Shown: positions 10,921 through 64,000 of the stretch, piece by piece
Position numbering within the stretch: position 1 is the stretch's first letter
How the letters are laid out: each line of letters opens with the position of its first letter
Source: Candidatus Krumholzibacteriota bacterium
Lineage (GTDB): Bacteria; Krumholzibacteriota; Krumholzibacteriia; LZORAL124-64-63
Length of the DNA: 64,000 nucleotides
Assembly: GCA_024275485.1 (NCBI GenBank)
Contig: JAJRZA010000037.1
Coordinates: 5,241 to 69,240 of the forward strand
Direction of reading: 5' to 3'
Made by a program: the position numbers and the translations under genes
The notes under the pieces: model-generated
What the model was told of the DNA's origin: nothing
The model's input: the letters and a program-made list of their open reading frames with translations, nothing else
Databases searched by the model: none

Positions 10921-11268
10921 CTAGCCAAGAATTTCTTCATACAATTCAGGGTTGAACCCCACCAAAATGGTTTTTCCCCGTTGAACGGTGGGAGCCCGCA
11001 AATTGCCGGTGGTGCCGAGCATGGCCTTCAACATGTCCTCTTCGGCGGGTTTGTCTTTTTTGAGATCGAAAACCGTCACTTTTTTGCCCTTCATGACCAC
11101 TATCTTTGATGCAGTGGCGATCAACTCGCGGGCCCTGTCGGCACCGAGTTTGGCGTTGGCGTTGGTCTCGGATTTGAAGGTTATTTCATGATTCGCAAGG
11201 AACTCCTGCGAGCGGTTGCAGCTCGTTCATCCTTTGCGGTAATAATACCAGTCGGCACGCTTGGCCAT
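10921..11268 (-). CDS. Spx/ArsC-family thioredoxin-fold protein with an in-frame TGA at the first Cys of the CxxC motif; candidate selenoprotein (UxxC)
   Basis: Read through the TGA at 11227..11229, the protein is MAKRADWYYYRKG-[TGA]-TSCNRSQEFLANHEITF...ILVGFNPELYEEILG. It aligns with Spx ([24 protein letters not shown]...LQVGYNEDEIRRFL), and the TGA falls on the catalytic Cys. ATG at 11268 has a GGGAG RBS. A hairpin (CGAGC-UGCAACC-GCUCG) begins 4 nt after the UGA. Confidence 0.5.
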
Positions 11269-11311
11269 GTCTTGCTCCCGGTTGAGTTTGAGGGTTTCAA
11301 TGGGGACAATA

Positions 11312-12091
11312 CTAGTTGCTTGGGGGAATTTGGCAAGAGAGGCCCTGTGATATGCCAATGATGGCGGCAAAGCGGCCGGCTTTTGGGCCTTGGGTGCGCC
11401 AACTCCAGAAATCATCTCCCGCACAAATGGTACAAATTCCCAAATTTTCCACCTGGTCCTGCGGCACTCCCCCATCAAGCAATTGCCCCAGGTTGGCCGA
11501 CCAAAGATTGAAAAACCAGCTGTCGTCCCGGCGGAGAAAATACTTCACCGCCTTTGACCCAAGTTCCAGCATGGCCTGATCCCGCACTTCCTCACCAACT
11601 TCGTAGCAACAGGGTCCGGCTGATGGGGCAATGGCAGCGGTCATGGTTCTCGGCAGGCAACCCATGTCTCCGGCGAGTCTGTCCACGAGGATCCCCGTGA
11701 TACCCTCGACCGTTGACCGCCAGGAGGCATGGGCGAAACCCACGGCGGCTGTTCCGTCATTTCGTTGGCCGGTCAGAAGAATGATGGGGCAATCAGCACT
11801 ACGTCCGGCAATCAGGAGCCCGCCGGCATCGGTGACCAGGCCATCGGCCTGCCCGACCAGACCTGGTTGATGGGCCTGAAGGATGGTATTGCCATGCACC
11901 TGGTGAGCCCAGGCCGTGCCATTCATGTGCAGTAATTCGGCAGTTTCGGCGGCGGCCCGGACAGTGGCCTGATCAGTGCCCACCTGCCCGAACGCGGGGC
12001 CGTGGCGAGTGGTCACGGCGTGGGTGATATGATCCAGTTTCAATAAATTCTGAAAACGGACGAAGGGAGCGTGGCGCCGGCCGCCACTCAT
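11312..12091 (-). CDS. pgeF: Peptidoglycan editing factor PgeF (YfiH/DUF152, purine nucleoside phosphorylase-like)
   Basis: Motifs HGNTI, DGLVTD, ADCPIILL, HASWRS and CCYEVG. Four-nt overlap with thyX. Confidence 0.85.
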   Translation of the reverse strand: MSGGRRHAPFVRFQNLLKLDHITHAVTTRHGPAFGQVGTDQATVRAAAETAELLHMNGTAWAHQVHGNTILQAHQPGLVGQADGLVTDAGGLLIAGRSADCPIILLTGQRNDGTAAVGFAHASWRSTVEGITGILVDRLAGDMGCLPRTMTAAIAPSAGPCCYEVGEEVRDQAMLELGSKAVKYFLRRDDSWFFNLWSANLGQLLDGGVPQDQVENLGICTICAGDDFWSWRTQGPKAGRFAAIIGISQGLSCQIPPSN

Positions 12092-13083
12092 TCCCAGGGT
12101 ACCTTCAGGTTTAGGGTTTTCAACTTGGTAGTCAGTTCGTCCCGTTCACGGTTGCGGATGAAACCACCCTTTTTGGCGGGTTTCAACCAGCCTGCGTCCG
12201 TGGCGATACGCATGGCGTCTTCCATGTCGCCCGTTCCAATGGCGGCCATGATTTTGTGTTCGATGCGAGAGTAACTCACCGATCCCATGCGGTAGTCTTC
12301 GAAGGCTTCCCAGGCCAGCGGCACCCAGCGCGCCACGATTTCCCTGCCGATGATGGTGGCGTAGTCGCGGATTTCCTTTTGGGCGTGGGGGTCCATGCGC
12401 AAGGCCAGGAAGTGCAGCAAATTGTGCAGATCCATTTTCCAGTAGGCTTCGGTGTAGGTGCAAAGGGGCAGGTCTTTGCGGGCCTGCTCGCGTGCGACAC
12501 CGAATTCGAGGCGTTGGTTGTATACTTGGCGGGCGGTGTTTTTGAAATCGGTTTCGGCCTGGGTAAGTTCGACACCAGTTTTTGAATCGAGCCAGCCGTC
12601 GCTGCCCTGTTTGTTGTCGATGGCCTGGACGCGCCATTGGTCAGGTGCGGTGGTTTGGGAGGAATCGATGGCAATGGAATAGCGAGTGCTCGTTTCATTT
12701 GTTGAGGCAGTTCTATGACGTATCCACTGCCGCCACGCATCCATCGGCACCCGGATATGCAGCTTCAAACTGCACATCTCAAAAGGCGTGGTATGACGAT
12801 GCCGCAACAAGTACCGAATCAACCCGCGATCATCGCTGGTCTTCTTCGTCCCCTCCCCATAGGAAACCCTCGCGGCCTGCACGATGGCCTGGTCGTCACC
12901 CATGTAGTCGATCACTCGAATCAATCCATCGTCCAGAACCTCAAAAGGAACACCCAGAATTTCATCGAGGGCTGGCACTCCGGGGCGGTTCAGTTTTTCA
13001 GCGCGCTGATCCATCATCTCTCCTGTGGTCGAATGATCGTTATTCGAATGATTTGCTGATGGCCTGTTCGATGATGGAGTCAT
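12088..13083 (-). CDS. thyX: FAD-dependent thymidylate synthase ThyX
   Basis: ThyX signature RHRTASTNETSTRY (RHR...S...S.RY). The start may be the later Met (MMDQ, 13017). Confidence 0.9.
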   Translation of the reverse strand: MTPSSNRPSANHSNNDHSTTGEMMDQRAEKLNRPGVPALDEILGVPFEVLDDGLIRVIDYMGDDQAIVQAARVSYGEGTKKTSDDRGLIRYLLRHRHTTPFEMCSLKLHIRVPMDAWRQWIRHRTASTNETSTRYSIAIDSSQTTAPDQWRVQAIDNKQGSDGWLDSKTGVELTQAETDFKNTARQVYNQRLEFGVAREQARKDLPLCTYTEAYWKMDLHNLLHFLALRMDPHAQKEIRDYATIIGREIVARWVPLAWEAFEDYRMGSVSYSRIEHKIMAAIGTGDMEDAMRIATDAGWLKPAKKGGFIRNRERDELTTKLKTLNLKVPWE

Positions 13084-15301
13084 CGGCGTGTCGGGCCTTG
13101 GTGATTTTCAGGTTTGGCTCCAGTTCCATGGCCCGTTCGATGGCAAACTCGGCGCCTGCGTTGCGGGCCCAGGCCCGACGTGCGACACCGTTGTTCACGT
13201 CCCAATGCAGCATGGAGCGCAGTCGTTGTGCGCAGTCGTCGCTGCCGTCGAGCAACATGCCGAATCCACCGTTGACCACTTCACCCCAACCAACTCCGCC
13301 GCCGTTGTGCAGGCTGACCCAGGTGGCGCCGCGAAAACTGTCGCCGATGCAGTTCTGCACCGCCATGTCGGCGGTGAACATGCTGCCGTCGAAAATGTTG
13401 CTGGTCTCGCGATATGGGCTGTCGGTGCCGGAGACATCATGATGATCGCGACCGATCACCACTGGGGATAAAATTTCGCCCCGTTTGATGGCCTCATTGA
13501 AAGCAGCGGCGATGGCCCGGCGGCCTTCAGCGTCACTGTACAGGATGCGAGCCTGACTGCCGACCACCATTTTGTTGGCACCGGCCTGGCGGATCCAGGT
13601 CAGGTTGTCCAAATACTGCTGGCGGGTCTCTTCGGGGGCGATGGCAACCAGTTTTTCCATCACTTCGCCGGCGATGCGGTCGGTGGTGAACAGATCCTCG
13701 GGCTTGCCGCTGGTGCACACCCAGCGGAAGGGCCCGAAACCGTAGTCGAAACAAAGCGGCCCCATGATGTCTTCCACGTAGCTGGGATAGATGAAGCGGC
13801 CATCGGGTTTGGCAATGTCGGCTCCGGCGCGGCTGCACTCCAGCAGGAAGGCGTTGCCGTAGTCCCAGAAACGAGTGCCCCGGGCAACCATTTTGTTCAC
13901 CGCTTCGATGTGCCGCAACAAAGATGCCTGGACTTTTTCTTTGAAGGTCGCGGGATCGGCGACCAGCATTTCGTTGCTCTCTTCATAGGTCATGTCCACG
14001 GGGTAATAACCGCCGGTGAAGGGGATGTGCAGGCTGGTTTGATCGCTGCCCAGTTCCACGGCTATGTCGCTATCGACCAACGCTTCCCAGAGATCGACGA
14101 TGTTTCCTTGATAGGCCAGGGCCACGGCTTCCTTGTCGGCTTTGGCCTTTCGAACTCGATCCAACAGGGCAGGCAGTTCGGTATAGACTTCATCCACCCA
14201 TCCCTGTTCGTGACGTTTTTTCACGGCATCGGGATTGATTTCGGCCAGCAATCCCACACAGCCGGCGATGACTGCCGCTTTGCCTTGAGCGCCACTCATT
14301 CCTCCCAGTCCGCTGGATAGATACAAGGCACCGGGCAGGGGATCTTCACCCTCAAGATAAAGCCGTACCACACCCAAGATGCTGATGGTTGTGCCGTGCA
14401 CGATACCCTGGGGGCCTATGTACATGAAGCTGCCGGCGGTCATCTGGCCGTAGCTTGTTACGCCGAGGGCGCTCATGCGGGTGTAGTCGTCGCCGTTGCT
14501 GTAGTTGGGGATGACCATGCCGTTGGTCACCACCATGCGGGGAGCATTCTTGTGACTGGGAAAGAGGCCCATGGGATGGCCGGAGTACATGGCGAGGGTT
14601 TGTTCCTAGCTCATCTCCGACAAGTACTTCATGGTCAGCAGGTATTGGGCCCAGTTCTGGAAGACGGTGCCGTTGCCGCCGTAGGTGATCAGTTCGTAGG
14701 GGTGCTGGGCGACGGCGGGGTCGAGGTTGTTTTGAATCATGAGCATGATGCCGGCAGCCTGGGCGCATTGGACCGGATATTGGTCGATGGGCCGGGCGTG
14801 CATATCGTAGGTGGGGCGAAAGCGATGCATGTAGATGCGACCGTGGCTAGCCAGTTCATCGGCGAACTCGGGGGCCAGTTCGGCGTGCATTCCGGGTGGG
14901 AAATAGCGCAGGGCATTGCGCAGGGCCAGTTTCTTTTCGTCAGCCGAAAGCAGCATCGGTCGCTCGGGGGCACGACTGATGGCCGGATCGTCCTTGGGCA
15001 TGGCTGGAATAGTGTCGGGGATGCCTTGGCGGATTTGCTGCTGGAAGGATTCGGGGCTTGTTTGTGCGCTCACGGCGCGACCTCCTACAAAGGTGATTGG
15101 TTGCCGGGAAGATAGCATCTGGAAAGCGGATGGGAAAGGCCTGGACCGATGCTCAGATCTCTTTTTAACGATAAATATCATGAAGGCCGTCCCAGGTTCA
15201 TTTCCCGGTGGCAACAAGGATTGCACCCTGGAATTTGCGTTCTGTCCTTGTTCCCGGGAGATTTGGTGTATATTTGTTGTTGACCACAGGAACTTATCCA
15301 C
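13040..15301 (-). pseudogene. hutU: Urocanate hydratase (long, UROC1-like form) interrupted by a single in-frame TAG
   Basis: ORFs 14606..15301 and 13040..14590 share a frame and together give a full urocanase (ALRNALRYFPP..., NNLDPAVAQHPYELITYGGNG, SGLGGMSGAQ, GGGVGWGE). The TAG at 14606..14608 sits in ...MKYLSEMS*EQTLAMYSGHP, at the position of E in human UROC1 (KMTEEQTL). No frameshift. Confidence 0.8.
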
Positions 15302-21148: not shown

Positions 21149-21263
21149 AGAATAATCGCTTTGGGAGCTTTTTCAATGGCTTTGACCTATGCTGTTCCGC
21201 AGGCTACTATCTTCCAGTACGGTAATTTCCAACCGGAACCTCATCAAGAAAACAGGAGAGCTC

Positions 21264-22154
21264 ATGGACGCCAAAGTTCTGCAGCAGAATCTCCTCGAGC
21301 TCATCCGCCGCACCAGCTGTCAGCTGCCGACGGATGTGGCCCGGGTCATCGACAAGGGATGGCGCAGGGAGAAAAAGGATTCGTCGGGCAAGTACGCCTT
21401 GGCAGTGATTCGCGACAACATCGGCATGGCAAGGGACAAGAGTCAGCCTCTTTGTCAGGACACGGGGGTCATCATTTGTTATGTGGAACTGCCATCGTGG
21501 CTGAACGAAAAAACGTTCAAGATGGCCTATGACAAGGCTGTCGTGCGAGCCACGAAAGTTGGTTACCTGCGACAGAATTCCGTGGACTCCATCACTGGTG
21601 AAAATTCAGGGAACAACCTCGGCCCCGGCAACCCCAGCTACCATTTTCATCCGGCTAAAGGCAAGAGCCTAAAGGTGCGCATGATGCTCAAGGGTGGCGG
21701 CTGTGAGAACATGAGCATCCAGTACAGTTTACCGGACAACCGCATCGGCGCAGGCCGTGATTTGGCGGGAGTGCGCAAGTGCCTGCTCGACGCCGTGCTC
21801 AACGCCCAGGGCAAAGGTTGCGGACCCGGTATTCTGGGTGTGTGCATCGGTGGCGACCGGGGAAGCGGATATGTGGCTGCCAAAGAAGAATTCTTTCGCA
21901 CTCTGGACGATAAAAATGAAGACAAGCGTTTGGCCAAACTGGAAAAACAGATCCTTGATGAAGCCAATACCCTGGGCATCGGTCCCATGGGCTTTGGTGG
22001 CGAGACCACTTTACTGGGTGTGAAGATCACTCATCGTAACCGCGTGCCCGCGTCATTCTTTGTTTCGGTTTCCTACATGTGCTGGGCTTTCCGTCGCAAT
22101 GGAATCATGATGAACGAAAAAGGGAAGATTTCCCGCTGGCTGTACGAATCCTAG
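21264..22154 (+). CDS. Fe-S hydro-lyase (class I fumarate/tartrate dehydratase), alpha subunit
   Basis: CQDTGV motif and conserved GGGCENMS and GICIGGDRGSGY blocks. ATG with an AGGAGAG RBS. Confidence 0.85.
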   Translation: MDAKVLQQNLLELIRRTSCQLPTDVARVIDKGWRREKKDSSGKYALAVIRDNIGMARDKSQPLCQDTGVIICYVELPSWLNEKTFKMAYDKAVVRATKVGYLRQNSVDSITGENSGNNLGPGNPSYHFHPAKGKSLKVRMMLKGGGCENMSIQYSLPDNRIGAGRDLAGVRKCLLDAVLNAQGKGCGPGILGVCIGGDRGSGYVAAKEEFFRTLDDKNEDKRLAKLEKQILDEANTLGIGPMGFGGETTLLGVKITHRNRVPASFFVSVSYMCWAFRRNGIMMNEKGKISRWLYES

Positions 22155-22166
22155 GAGGCTCGGATC

Positions 22167-22733
22167 ATGTTGCTTGAAGCACCTTTTACTGAAGAGAAAA
22201 TCCGCGCCCTGAAAGTCGGCGACAAGGTAGAAATCACCGGCCTGGTTTTCACTGGTCGCGATGCGGTTCACAAATACCTGCACGACGGTGGCAAACCGCC
22301 GGTGAATCTGATGAACAGCATCATTTATCACTGCGGTCCCGTGGTTGTGAAGGAAAAAGGCAAGTGGGTGGTCAAGGCCGCCGGGCCCACCACGAGCATC
22401 CGCGAAGAACCCTACCAGGGTCCATTGATGGAGCAGTATGGTATCCGCGCCGTCATCGGCAAGGGTGGCATGGGGCCGAAAACCCTGGAGTATTGCCGGA
22501 AAGTTGGTGCTGTATATTTCCACGCCATCGGTGGTGCGGCTCAGGTTTTGGCCGAGCGGGTGGTCGAAGTACCCAATGTGCACATGGCGGAAGAGTTTGG
22601 CGCCCCGGAAGCCATCTGGGAATTCGTGGTGGACAAGTTCCCGGTGGTGGTGACCATGGACTCCCATGGAAATTCATTGCATGATCAGGTTCTGGCCGAC
22701 TCTCAGGAACGACTGAAAAAGATGATGGGTTAA
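22167..22733 (+). CDS. Fe-S hydro-lyase (class I fumarate/tartrate dehydratase), beta subunit
   Basis: Motifs TGLVFTGRDAVHK and GKGGMG, 188 aa, directly downstream of the alpha subunit. Confidence 0.85.
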   Translation: MLLEAPFTEEKIRALKVGDKVEITGLVFTGRDAVHKYLHDGGKPPVNLMNSIIYHCGPVVVKEKGKWVVKAAGPTTSIREEPYQGPLMEQYGIRAVIGKGGMGPKTLEYCRKVGAVYFHAIGGAAQVLAERVVEVPNVHMAEEFGAPEAIWEFVVDKFPVVVTMDSHGNSLHDQVLADSQERLKKMMG

Positions 22734-50468: not shown

Positions 50469-51689
50469 ATGTCCACCGACTTGGTCAAAGCCCGCATCAT
50501 GACCGTCATGCGCAATCTGCCGCCTTTGCCTGCGGTGACGCGCCAATTGCTGGCCGTGATGCGTGATGATGATTAATCTGCCGACGATGTCACCAAGGTG
50601 CTCTCAGCAGATGGTATGCTGGCCGCAAAAGTTCTCAAACTTGTGAACAGCTCGTTTTATGGAGTGGCGGCAGAAGTGACTACCATCAGCAGGGCCGTGG
50701 TTCTTCTGGGTTTTTCCGGTATTCGCAACCTTGCCCTGGGATTCGGCACAGTGGAGGCGTTGTCGGAGATGGGGTCGAAATCGGACATGACAGATTACTG
50801 GGCCCACGCCATGGCTACCGCGACGGCAGCCCAGGCTCTAGCGCCTCTCGTCAACCGACGCACTGATCCCGAAGAAGCTTTTATTGCCGGCCTGATGCAC
50901 GACATCGGCGCCTACGTGTTGGCCGCGAGCGTACCTGAATCCTATGGTGACATTATCATGCTCCCGGCTTCCGAGCGGCTGCGGAAAGAACAGGATGTAG
51001 CGGGTTTTACCCATGCCAAGGTGGGGCAGGGGCTGTTGAAATTCTGGGATCTCCCAGAGGTGTTTTCCAATGCAGCGCGCTATCACCATGATGTGGAGGT
51101 TACATCCGGTGAAGATCAGCCTCTGACTTCCCTGGTGGCTCTGGCTGATATCCTGGCCACCATACATGGTGGATCTTTGATAACCGACGCATCTGAAAAC
51201 GATTTGAACCGGATGTGCGGAGCTGTGGGAATCAAGCCCGAACACCTTTGCACAACCCTCAATACAATAGCTCAGAAAATTGGCGAAATGGCGAAATTCA
51301 TGAAGATTTCCGGGGCAGGATCCTCCCTGGAAAAAGCGGAAAACAAGATTCCCACCATGACCTGTGTGGTGGTGACCACAGACGAATCCCGCCGAAATCT
51401 TGTGGAGTGTCTGCTGAAGCATTTGGGTCATGAGACTTTTCCCATGGATAGCTATTTCAATCAGGAACCCGGTGGCAGTGAGGTTGGACTGGTCCTTGTG
51501 GATCCACAGGCCCTGAGCCGGGATCAATTGGATCGTCTGGCCGTTTATCTGGTTGATCAAAGCACCAGCATGGGTGTTTTGGTGGAAAACGGTACCACCA
51601 TTCCGGATTCCATGACAGCCTGGCCCACCATCAACTTTATTTTTGGGCGGCGCCAGCTGGCTGAAATCATACAAATGCAGCCTGCCTGA
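50469..51689 (+). pseudogene. HDOD-domain signalling protein with an in-frame TAA at 50574..50576
   Basis: The ATG at 50469 encodes MSTDLVKARIMTVMRNLPPLPAVTRQLLAVMRDDD-[TAA]-SADDVTKVLSADGMLAAKVLKLVNSSFYG. This spans the conserved HDOD N-terminus (LPxLPxV...DPD.S..EL...IS.DP.L.AKvLrlaNSayyG), and the TAA sits inside it with no frameshift. Confidence 0.65.
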
Positions 51690-61618: not shown

Positions 61619-64000
61619 TCAGTTCAACTCCGATAACCAGTTCACCACCACACTTAGGGTGCGGGGTTGGGATTTGTCCGGAATGTGTGCAATCAGGAAA
61701 CGCTGAGAGTCGGGAGTGGGCGAAAAGGCAATTCCATCGGGCATCGTTATGGTACCCAATCCGCCAAATAGGGTCTTCGGCCGATCAACAGCCAGGTCGG
61801 TGGTCGTGGAGCGTTCAAGATCGACGGTGGCTGCCATCATGATCGATTGTTGTTGGAAGTACAATTCGTCCCCGGTGGGGGACTATACGGGTTCTTGGCC
61901 CCCGGCGAGGGAAACCTGCACGCGAGAACCCCCGTCGGGAAAAGGCATGGCGTAAATTTCAAACTGGCCGCTTTCGTTGCTGTGGTACGCCAGCCAGCGT
62001 CCGTCTGGTGAGACGGTTCCGGCTTCTTCCTGGAAATTCGTTTGAAGAAAAGGGCGTGGCTCTCCTTCCCCATCCAAGGGCAATAGCCAAATATCCCCAC
62101 TAGTGCCGGTTGCGGTTTCAGTAAAGACCAGCCACCTCCCGTCGGGAGAAACACTTGTCGGCACCGTGTCAATGGGCTTTTTTAACAGCAGCTGAGTGTC
62201 GCTTGAACCATCGGCCGGACGCTGGTAGATGGTGTACTGCGGTTCTTCGCCGTTGTAAACTACGGTGCGACCGTCCGGTGTCCAGATGGGGTTGAGATCG
62301 CTAGCGGGGGAGAAGGTGAAGCGCGAAGACGTGCCACGTTCAAGATCATGGATCCAGATGTCGGTGTTGTGATTGTCGGAAATGGAGACGGCTATGCGGC
62401 GGCCGTCCGGTGATAATCTGGGTTTGCTATAATGGCGTGCCGGCAGATCGAGGACAGCCAATTCTCCCAGGCGATCGACCCAGGCCAGATGTCTAGGTGC
62501 GTTGATCACCGAGGCAGTGGCGTAGACAAGTGTGCCGTTGGCCCCGAAACCCAGTGGTGAAAAGCCGTCGCTGACTTCAAGGTAAACGTCCTCGAGAATG
62601 GGTTCGGCGCTGCCGGTGACGGCTATTTTCCGGCAATCAAACGGTGCAGCCATCAATTTGCCATCGCGCACAAAAAGAAGATGGCCGGTTGGTGCCCAGC
62701 GACCGAAGGAGCCTCCTTCTACCAGGACCCGCTGTTCACCACTTTTAAGGGAAAGTGCCATGATTCGTGCGTTTTCAATGGGCGTCGAGTAACCGGTGTA
62801 GATGACCCACTCATCGTCTGGAAGCAACTGTGGCCACCAATGCCCTAATTCATGATGGGCCCGATCGGGTGTGGTCAAGAGTTGGGGTTGGCCTCCGGCC
62901 GCTGGGACAACAAAAAGTCCGCTGGCGTAGTTGCTGGTGAAGATGATGCGATCATCTGTTGTCCACGCTCCACCACCCCATTCGGTTTGGCACAACTCAA
63001 TGGGGGAGCCACCGTCCAGAGAGACTTTTTGCAACTTGCTGCCGCGAGTGAATCCCAACCAATGGCCGTCAGGTGAAAAAAATGGAGATTCGGCATTTTC
63101 GGTTCCTGGAATCGGGACCAGGGTCGGGTCGTCCATGGCGCGCAAAAAAAGTTGGTTACCCATAGGTGTCTTGAGGGAAACGACAAACGCTTCGCCGGAT
63201 GGTGAGACTGCCAGTAGCTGGCGGTCTCCTGCGACCCACTGGTCCTGCGGCATCGTCAGATCAAAACGAATTGGACTGGGCGCAACCGGGACCTCGCTGC
63301 TAAATACCTGCCAGCCCATGATCATGGCCATCACCGCCATGACCGTGGCAGTAATCCAACCAGCCCAGACTTTTCTTGTCCCACCGATGGTCATTGGCGC
63401 GATGCTCCCCTCGGCGGGTTCATAGGCCGAAGTGCCGTCCTGCAATATTTCTTCCATCACGATGCGGGCATCGGCGATGTGGTGCATGCGCTGGCGCTTG
63501 TCACGCTGGAGACAGCGTTGCAGCAGGCGCCGCAAGCTTGGGGGCATGTCGGGCGGCAGCGCTGTCCAATCGGGATCGCTGCGCAGAACCATTGCCAGAG
63601 TGTCGCTAACGGTTTCGCCGGCAAAAAGCCGACAACCGGCCAGCAACTCCCACAGAATCACTCCAAAGGCCCAAATGTCCGTGCGCGCGTCAACCTCGTG
63701 GCCACGTGCCTGTTCGGGGCTCATGTAAGCGGCGGTACCGAGGATGACACCGGCTTGGGTCATGGCTGCGGTCAGGGTTGGGGAGGTGCCCGGCTCGGTG
63801 GTGGCCTCTTCCTCGCCCTGGTAGGCCCGGGCCAGGCCGAAGTCGAGAATCTTGATGAGCCCGTCCGCGCTCAATTTCACGTTGGCGGGTTTGAGGTCGC
63901 GGTGAACGATTCCTTTAGCGTGAGCCTCTTCCAGACCGGAGGCAATTTGCACCGCGACAGCCAAGGCTTCAACCGGTTGCATGGCACCGCGACTGATGCG
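61619..64000 (-). pseudogene. Ser/Thr protein kinase fused to a TolB-like beta-propeller, interrupted by an in-frame TAG at 61883..61885; the 5' end lies beyond the window
   Basis: The kinase subdomains (HRDLKPANV, DFGLA, SPEQ) are followed by WD/TolB-like repeats. After the TAG the same frame continues SPTGDELYFQQQ...[12 protein letters not shown]...[12 protein letters not shown], the family's typical C-terminus. The TAG aligns with the conserved Trp of the P-x-W-S-P-D-G repeat. Confidence 0.75.

Follow-up and report, generated by a model that had tools for sequence, protein, structure and literature searches.

The minus-strand reading frame at 11268..10921 of the window, by which we mean the whole 64-kb stretch of DNA analysed here, appears to be one intact gene for a thioredoxin-fold redox protein of 115 amino acids (family NF041106) in which the UGA at codon 14 would be decoded as selenocysteine (Sec). 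From comparative sequence analysis we assign this reading a probability of about 90%. It is based on the match to NF041106, the pattern of Sec and Cys codons in 80 related loci, the coding conservation upstream of the UGA and a covarying bacterial SECIS (bSECIS) hairpin, and together these support the proposal, made in a preliminary description of this DNA, of a selenoprotein with Sec as the first residue of a UxxC motif.

The frame contains 115 codons with TGA (11229..11227) as its single in-frame stop. By translation and HMM matches the gene is complete (10921..11268, minus strand), running from an ATG (11268..11266) that lies 13 codons 5' of the TGA to a TAG stop (10923..10921). A Shine-Dalgarno-like GGGAG (11279..11275), identified by direct reading of the sequence, precedes the ATG by 6 nt. 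The earlier placement of this start codon and ribosome binding site was confirmed, as were the coordinates and common frame of the two ORFs previously described at this locus, 11227..11478 and 10921..11124 (both minus strand), between which the TGA is the sole stop. When read through, they encode MAKRADWYYYRKG-U-TSCNRSQEFLANHEITF...GNLRAPTVQRGKTILVGFNPELYEEILG, with TSCNRSQ directly after the U and ILG at the end. The UGA selenocysteine codon (11227..11229, minus strand), assigned by homologous-codon comparison and by alignment with Spx, opens a U-T-S-C redox motif, and the TGC at 11218..11220 of the same strand corresponds to the resolving cysteine (C17) of UxxC according to the motif counts in the family. 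TGA also serves as the ordinary stop of 23 of the 41 family-supported ORFs in the window, which indicates a standard genetic code without reassignment; decoding of TGA as Trp or Gly was rejected on these grounds.

Relatives were collected by scanning a single genome from each species, which returned 544 loci, and the DNA was read for the best 80. These loci are labelled as MAGs of Krumholzibacteriia, Planctomycetota, Phycisphaerae, Pseudomonadales/Pseudomonadota, Acidobacteriota, Gemmatimonadales, Actinomycetota and others. Among the best 80 of the 544 loci the homologous codon was TGA in 78 and TGC in two (L028 and L060), and a TGA at the same codon in so many related loci is far beyond chance. 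Alignment against Cys-containing homologues, a check proposed in the preliminary description, accordingly placed the TGA on their Cys. In the translated loci a conserved N-terminus, M-A-K-x-x-D-W-Y-Y-H-R-K-G, is followed by a stop (78 loci) or by Cys (two loci), and the start codon was found 13 codons 5' of the UGA in 58 of these best 80 relatives. The redox motif of the 81 family sequences (the window and 80 relatives) was UxxC in 72, UxxS in seven and CxxC in two. The relatives with UxxS (L004, L008, L010, L011, L012, L013 and L015) are mostly from Krumholzibacteriia.

Differences in the nine codons 5' of the UGA amounted to 0.225, 0.171 and 0.392 at codon positions 1, 2 and 3, respectively, and to about 0.73 in the non-coding DNA 5' of the start. 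Such coding-type differences between codon positions show that the segment 5' of the UGA is translated in frame. Trp-7, Tyr-5 and Arg-3, numbered relative to the UGA, are invariant or nearly so. Coding conservation was therefore found on both sides of the UGA, as is characteristic of selenoprotein genes, with G85, G88, N89, L90, R91 and P93 among the invariant residues downstream; R11, U/C14, G61, G98 and G104 are likewise invariant in the family.

A bSECIS hairpin of 7 bp, 5'-U CGCAGG [AGUUC] CUUGCG A-3', is predicted at 11211..11193 (minus strand) from minimum free energy (MFE), covariation and codon bias. Its apical loop of 5 nt occupies 11204..11200, and the spacing from the UGA to the loop is 22-23 nt. 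The hairpin has an MFE of -9.3 kcal/mol (z -2.32), and 4 of 200 shuffled sequences were equally stable. The published bSECIS model specifies a loop of 3-9 nt, a stem of 4-16 bp, a G within the first two loop positions, a spacing of 16-37 nt and an MFE of no more than -7.5 kcal/mol (PMC13188914); on all of these points the window hairpin conforms, with its 5-nt loop, in which G and U are the second and third nucleotides, its stem of 7 bp, its spacing of 22 nt and its MFE of -9.3 kcal/mol. A SECIS-like structure, whose absence had been named beforehand as a reason to give up the selenoprotein, is thus found at a canonical distance from the UGA.

The 79 Sec-form sequences (the window and its relatives) could be aligned gap-free over 60 nt from the UGA. 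In this alignment columns 20-26 were paired with columns 30-36 round G27-U28-U29 in 82.5% of cells compared to 71.2% in shuffled alignments, of which none in 500 reached the observed value, and slid registers of the same pairing gave 63% at most. Compensatory exchanges were seen at several positions of the stem (A-U in 33 and G-C in 29 sequences at 26:30, A-U in 56 and C-G in 18 at 23:33, and G-C in 59 and A-U in 10 at 25:31). Covariation, like pairing, was greater than in every one of the 500 shuffles and in every slid register. The loop reads GUU in 48 of the 79 Sec forms. Codon choice within the 3' arm was also skewed, as its Leu codon was CTT in 57 of 76 Sec forms, while in the remainder of these genes CTT made up just 59 of 763 Leu codons. 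Mean fold energy was -9.7 kcal/mol for the Sec forms versus -6.0 kcal/mol for synonymous recodings, and the two Cys forms had no hairpin (-3.4 and -0.2 kcal/mol).

At the loop-closing position the window carries an A·C mismatch where most relatives have A-U or G-C; L005, L015 and L041 resemble the window. The per-sequence synonymous-shuffle test gave a modest result (p = 0.11 for the window) since much of the stem is dictated by the amino-acid sequence. RNAalifold returned no consensus structure for the mixed alignment of all 79 Sec forms because two loop registers (GUU and GUUN) coexist in it together with a few unrelated hairpins. Rfam searches gave nothing relevant, either at the gathering threshold across the window or at E<=10 over 11120..11290, where one spurious lncRNA match had an E-value of 0.48. 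Compared with the E. coli fdhF-type bacterial SECIS, the family hairpin is likewise located within the coding sequence, carries G-U in an apical loop of small size and keeps its spacing inside 16-37 nt; it differs in a shorter, simple stem (6-9 bp in most cases), a loop that is mostly a GUU triloop and no evident bulged U. A gammaproteobacterial subgroup has another stem (UCCAA/UUGGA) with a GUUN loop in the same place, and at a few other loci the place is taken by unrelated yet stable hairpins. In the case of L038 and L059 (10056..10084 in each, columns 17-45 after the UGA), longer unrelated stems replace the usual GUU hairpin; the L038 stem consists of GGGCCGAC paired with GUCGGCCC, and the L059 loop is without G. 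These two stems appear to be independent SECIS solutions.

A different hairpin had been suggested in the preliminary description, the 5-bp CGAGC-UGCAACC-GCUCG at 11209..11225 (minus strand), which overlaps the 5' base of the SECIS stem. It can indeed form in the window, but across the relatives only 54.2% of its cells were paired compared to 53.1% after shuffling (116 of 500 shuffles were as good), with no excess covariation. Being unconserved and sharing bases with the conserved stem, it is not the SECIS.

These features are consistent with the following course of events. Translation would start at the ATG at 11268, and when the ribosome reached the UGA (11229..11227) the hairpin at 11211..11193, whose apical loop begins 22 nt 3' of the UGA and has G-U at loop positions 2-3, would be placed to recruit SelB-GTP-Sec-tRNASec, so that Sec would be inserted in place of termination. 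In the folded protein Sec14 is expected to follow strand beta1 and to stand at the N-terminal end of helix alpha1, beside Arg11 and the loop of invariant Arg91-Ala-Pro93. Its selenolate would be the nucleophile of the U-x-x-C motif and would cycle through a Sec14-Cys17 selenenylsulfide. The U-x-x-S motif of the seven relatives indicates that the resolving cysteine is dispensable in part of the family; in these proteins Sec14 would cycle with an external thiol, and their sequences suggest that such a thiol can resolve the selenenyl intermediate.

Gene callers have handled this family poorly. All 54 homologues retrieved from the protein collection are gene calls that lack the true N-terminus, and many of them begin right after the TGA. 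HMMER, run exhaustively against 1.84 billion representatives, returned 504 relatives. Among the best 150 of these, 26 are full length (at the Sec position 19 have Cys and six have Trp; one is irregular), and the remaining 124 begin at or after the residue next to the Sec position. The entries with Trp are P0056, P0057, P0098, P0104, P0153 and P0174 (e.g., YHRPGWKTC). They are most simply explained as TGA translated with table 4 by gene callers, an annotation artefact that is systematic for selenoproteins.

The same six 'full-length' relatives among the best 150 of 504 could instead be taken to mean that the UGA is read through without any Sec machinery, by a near-cognate Trp or Cys tRNA or under a recoded genetic code, to give a W/CxxC protein. 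In agreement with such a view, none of selA, selB, selD or tRNA-Sec was seen in the 64-kb window (0 tRNAs, about 50 ORFs scanned). The regions flanking 60 of the related loci likewise contained no tRNA-Sec. We nevertheless consider this explanation very improbable. The Trp forms are accounted for by translation with code 4, TGA terminates 23 of the 41 supported ORFs in the window, the catalytic Cys is not replaceable by Trp, and a conserved SelB-type hairpin at canonical spacing would be left without a role. Judging from the comparative data, the Krumholzibacteriia-like source genome most likely decodes UGA as selenocysteine.

Pseudogenisation had been kept in the preliminary description as a live alternative to Sec because of nonsense codons elsewhere in the window, and in-frame nonsense codons were borne out for three other genes, although none of them is TGA. 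hutU (13040..~15100, minus strand) contains an in-frame TAG at 14608..14606 with hutU profile matches on both sides ('...YLSEMS*EQTLAMYSGHP...'); this position is occupied by Glu in L001 and by Asp in L009, L010 and L019, and by this comparison the TAG is either a nonsense mutation specific to the lineage or an error in base calling. An HDOD/HD-domain gene has a TAA at 50574..50576 (plus strand), 5' of the ORF 50598..51689 ('...LLAVMRDDD*SADDVTKVLSADGML...'), and the Pfam HDOD match of this downstream ORF begins only at profile position 29. In a Ser/Thr kinase-PD40 gene a TAG at 61885..61883 (minus strand) ends the ORF 61883..63982 inside a PD40 motif ('GGQEPV*SPTGDELYF'), and 87 further in-frame open codons follow. 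The PD40 consensus presumably has Trp at this position, in which case TGG to TAG would be one change. The hutU stop is the one among the three that was compared with relatives. A brute-force list of in-frame stops and a codon-usage filter were noisy and missed the ArsC-like gene; they were of use only in finding the lesions in hutU and the HDOD gene. The fumarate hydratase alpha (Fumerase, 21189..22154) and beta (Fumerase_C, 22167..22733) genes on the plus strand also share one frame, with a TAG and 12 nt between them, which probably reflects a natural division into two subunits, not a lesion.

Given these neighbours, a TGC or TGT Cys codon that was mutated or miscalled to TGA in the source genome might seem plausible for the ArsC-like gene as well. 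However, the lesions are TAG or TAA codons and the hutU relatives have a sense codon at the site, whereas the TGA is common to 78 of 80 orthologues across phyla (best 80 of 544 loci), its flanking codons are under purifying selection, and the covarying hairpin follows it only in the TGA forms. These data refute a pseudogene or sequencing error in the case of the ArsC-like gene and effectively exclude it. The window thus offers a contrast between a programmed UGA, which is conserved and has a covarying hairpin 3' of it, and nonsense lesions such as the hutU stop, which is not common to relatives. The least probable explanation of all is that the UGA ends a 13-residue leader and the functional protein of 67 aa starts at the TTG at 11124, or that there are two separate small ORFs: gene callers do yield just such truncated products in public databases, but the codon after the UGA in the window is ACG and no start, a protein made from the first in-frame start would lack beta1, alpha1 and all of the redox motif, the 13 codons at the N-terminus show conservation at the protein level and include invariant Trp, Tyr and Arg, and the family HMM needs residues 6-110.

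The selenoprotein matched NCBIfam NF041106, "ArsC family (seleno)protein", with 124.1 bits against a curated cut-off of 85 (U written as C), and the match was full-length, with residues 6-110 on positions 2-107 of the 107 in the profile. In size, in UxxC with Sec first (U-T-S-C in the window, with the TGA aligned to the Cys of Cys-homologues) and in a bSECIS directly downstream, nothing essential distinguishes it from other proteins recognised by this HMM. Compared with catalogued NF041106 members, the window copy is particular in sitting 3' of hutU-thyX-pgeF and in the A·C mismatch that takes the place of the loop-closing pair of its SECIS. Pfam ArsC (PF03960) was matched with 25.5 bits against a threshold of 24, which places the protein in the ArsC/Spx/YffB superfamily.

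In a PDB search with the family profile, Spx structures scored best (E about 3e-9), followed by the putative ArsC 2M46 and YffB 1RW1. The alignment with the same profile put U14-T-S-C17 on C10-T-S-C13 of Spx, LRAP on LRRP and VGFN on VGYNE, so that U falls on Cys10 of the Spx CTSC motif, in agreement with the earlier assignment of the TGA to the catalytic N-terminal cysteine. The structures of Spx, the redox regulator that binds RNA polymerase in Bacillus and Streptococcus (PDB 1Z3E, 3L78 and 6GHB), are therefore the closest solved ones by sequence, and the Trx-like core is in common. Identity with Spx itself was rejected, as the scores lie far below the cut-offs of the Spx models (36.6 against 75.05 for TIGR01617, 27.8 against 123 for NF002459 and 17.1 against 152 for NF009885). 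The alignment with Spx also has a 4-residue gap at the Spx insert that bears Gly52, and the ArsC-like protein stops at 115 aa. The Gly52 loop of this insert and a C-terminal tail are features of the RNA-polymerase-binding regulators Spx and MgsR. The original label of an Spx/ArsC-family gene holds for the ArsC/Spx thioredoxin-fold superfamily, by NF041106 and PF03960, but not for Spx.

The R773-type, glutaredoxin-coupled ArsC has in common with the selenoprotein the PF03960 match, at threshold, and the position of the nucleophile (U14 at Cys12). No arsC model was among the NCBIfam matches at E<=1, and the PDB matches to the family profile at E<=10 did not include R773 ArsC. In hhalign, with a provisional R773 ArsC sequence, the probability was only 24%; U14 was aligned to Cys12 and the invariant Gly61 fell on Arg60. 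Assignment to R773-type ArsC was rejected because the selenoprotein had no arsC model match (NCBIfam, E<=1) and no PDB match to R773 ArsC (E<=10), and because, of Cys12 and Arg60/Arg94/Arg107, the nucleophile alone aligns directly. An equivalent of Arg94 may be R91 (in LRAP), as inferred through the Spx alignment. The CxxS motif of ArsC is paralleled by UxxS in the seven ArsC-like relatives; compare the UxxS 'ArsC 1' selenoproteins of the Sargasso and GOS surveys.

An AlphaFold2 model (pLDDT 92.4) was made of P0063, a relative in the Cys form with 43% identity. Its elements run beta1(6-10)-alpha1(14-25)-beta2-...-beta3-beta4-alpha, and alpha1 begins with CxxC, as it does in oxidoreductases of the thioredoxin fold. 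The nearest folds are YffB, ArsC-related proteins and Spx, then glutaredoxins. In comparison with YffB (PA3664, PDB 1RW1) and with glutaredoxin/NrdH-like redoxins, identity is 12-18% and about 82 of 115 residues superpose. Between beta2 and beta3 the model has a beta-hairpin (about residues 56-69) where canonical ArsC/Spx proteins have helices. This beta-hairpin, the presence of Sec in 78 of the best 80 loci and the mostly truncated calls in the best 150 of 504 relatives, which TGA forms would be expected to give, could be taken to mean that the family is a distinct, almost obligately Sec-using Grx/NrdH-like redoxin and belongs with neither the arsenate reductases nor the Spx-type regulators, a proposal that we consider unlikely.

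"Arsenate reductase" selenoproteins with UxxS are known from the Sargasso Sea (PMC1088965), and the GOS selenoproteome of Zhang and Gladyshev (2008) contains "Arsenate reductase 2, cd03032, UxxC, 42 sequences" (PMC2398784). A 2026 review describes the same family as an arsenate reductase-like protein and UxxC selenoprotein, and states that such selenoprotein families are still functionally uncharacterised (PMC13188914). The gene is thus a new copy within an already published selenoprotein family, UxxC motif included, and since family, motif and selenoprotein status have all been published it opens no new question. In the literature searched, no paper named both Krumholzibacteriota and selenocysteine. 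The analysis rescues the gene from the splitting or truncation produced by standard gene callers, which also shortened 54 of 54 database homologues and gave several public entries a spurious Trp at the Sec position.

Upstream of the selenoprotein gene and co-directional with it lie a pgeF-like gene, thyX and hutU, in keeping with the thyX-pgeF-spx unit described previously, of which thyX and pgeF were confirmed as co-directional upstream genes. thyX (12088..13083, minus strand) matched the NCBIfam thyX model with 180 bits against a cut-off of 87.9. The pgeF-like gene (11312..12091, minus strand) scored 109.5 bits, which is under the equivalog cut-off of 141 and denotes family-level similarity only. 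The gap from pgeF to the selenoprotein gene is 43 nt, and by this arrangement the gene is likely co-transcribed with those upstream. Downstream lies a convergent gene of the endonuclease/exonuclease/phosphatase (EEP) type, whose end is 24 nt away.

The order hutU-thyX-(pgeF)-ArsC-like with the convergent EEP nuclease gene was found only in the Krumholzibacteriia loci L001-L012 and L019; in L001 the neighbouring proteins are up to 85-89% identical to those of the window, and the window therefore belongs in this class or close to it. Neighbourhood clustering of the best 80 of the 544 loci revealed no partner gene conserved across phyla, so the context yields no functional lead beyond the class-specific linkage with thyX. 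As the gene is fixed directly 3' of thyX in Krumholzibacteriia, the protein might, under the unlikely reading as a Grx/NrdH-like redoxin, have a role in deoxynucleotide synthesis (e.g., as an electron donor). In one Krumholzibacteriia MAG (L008, 965..2518, plus strand) thyX encodes 517 aa, with an intein-like insertion in the middle of ThyX ('...CLAEGTEIYF...GIVTHNS').
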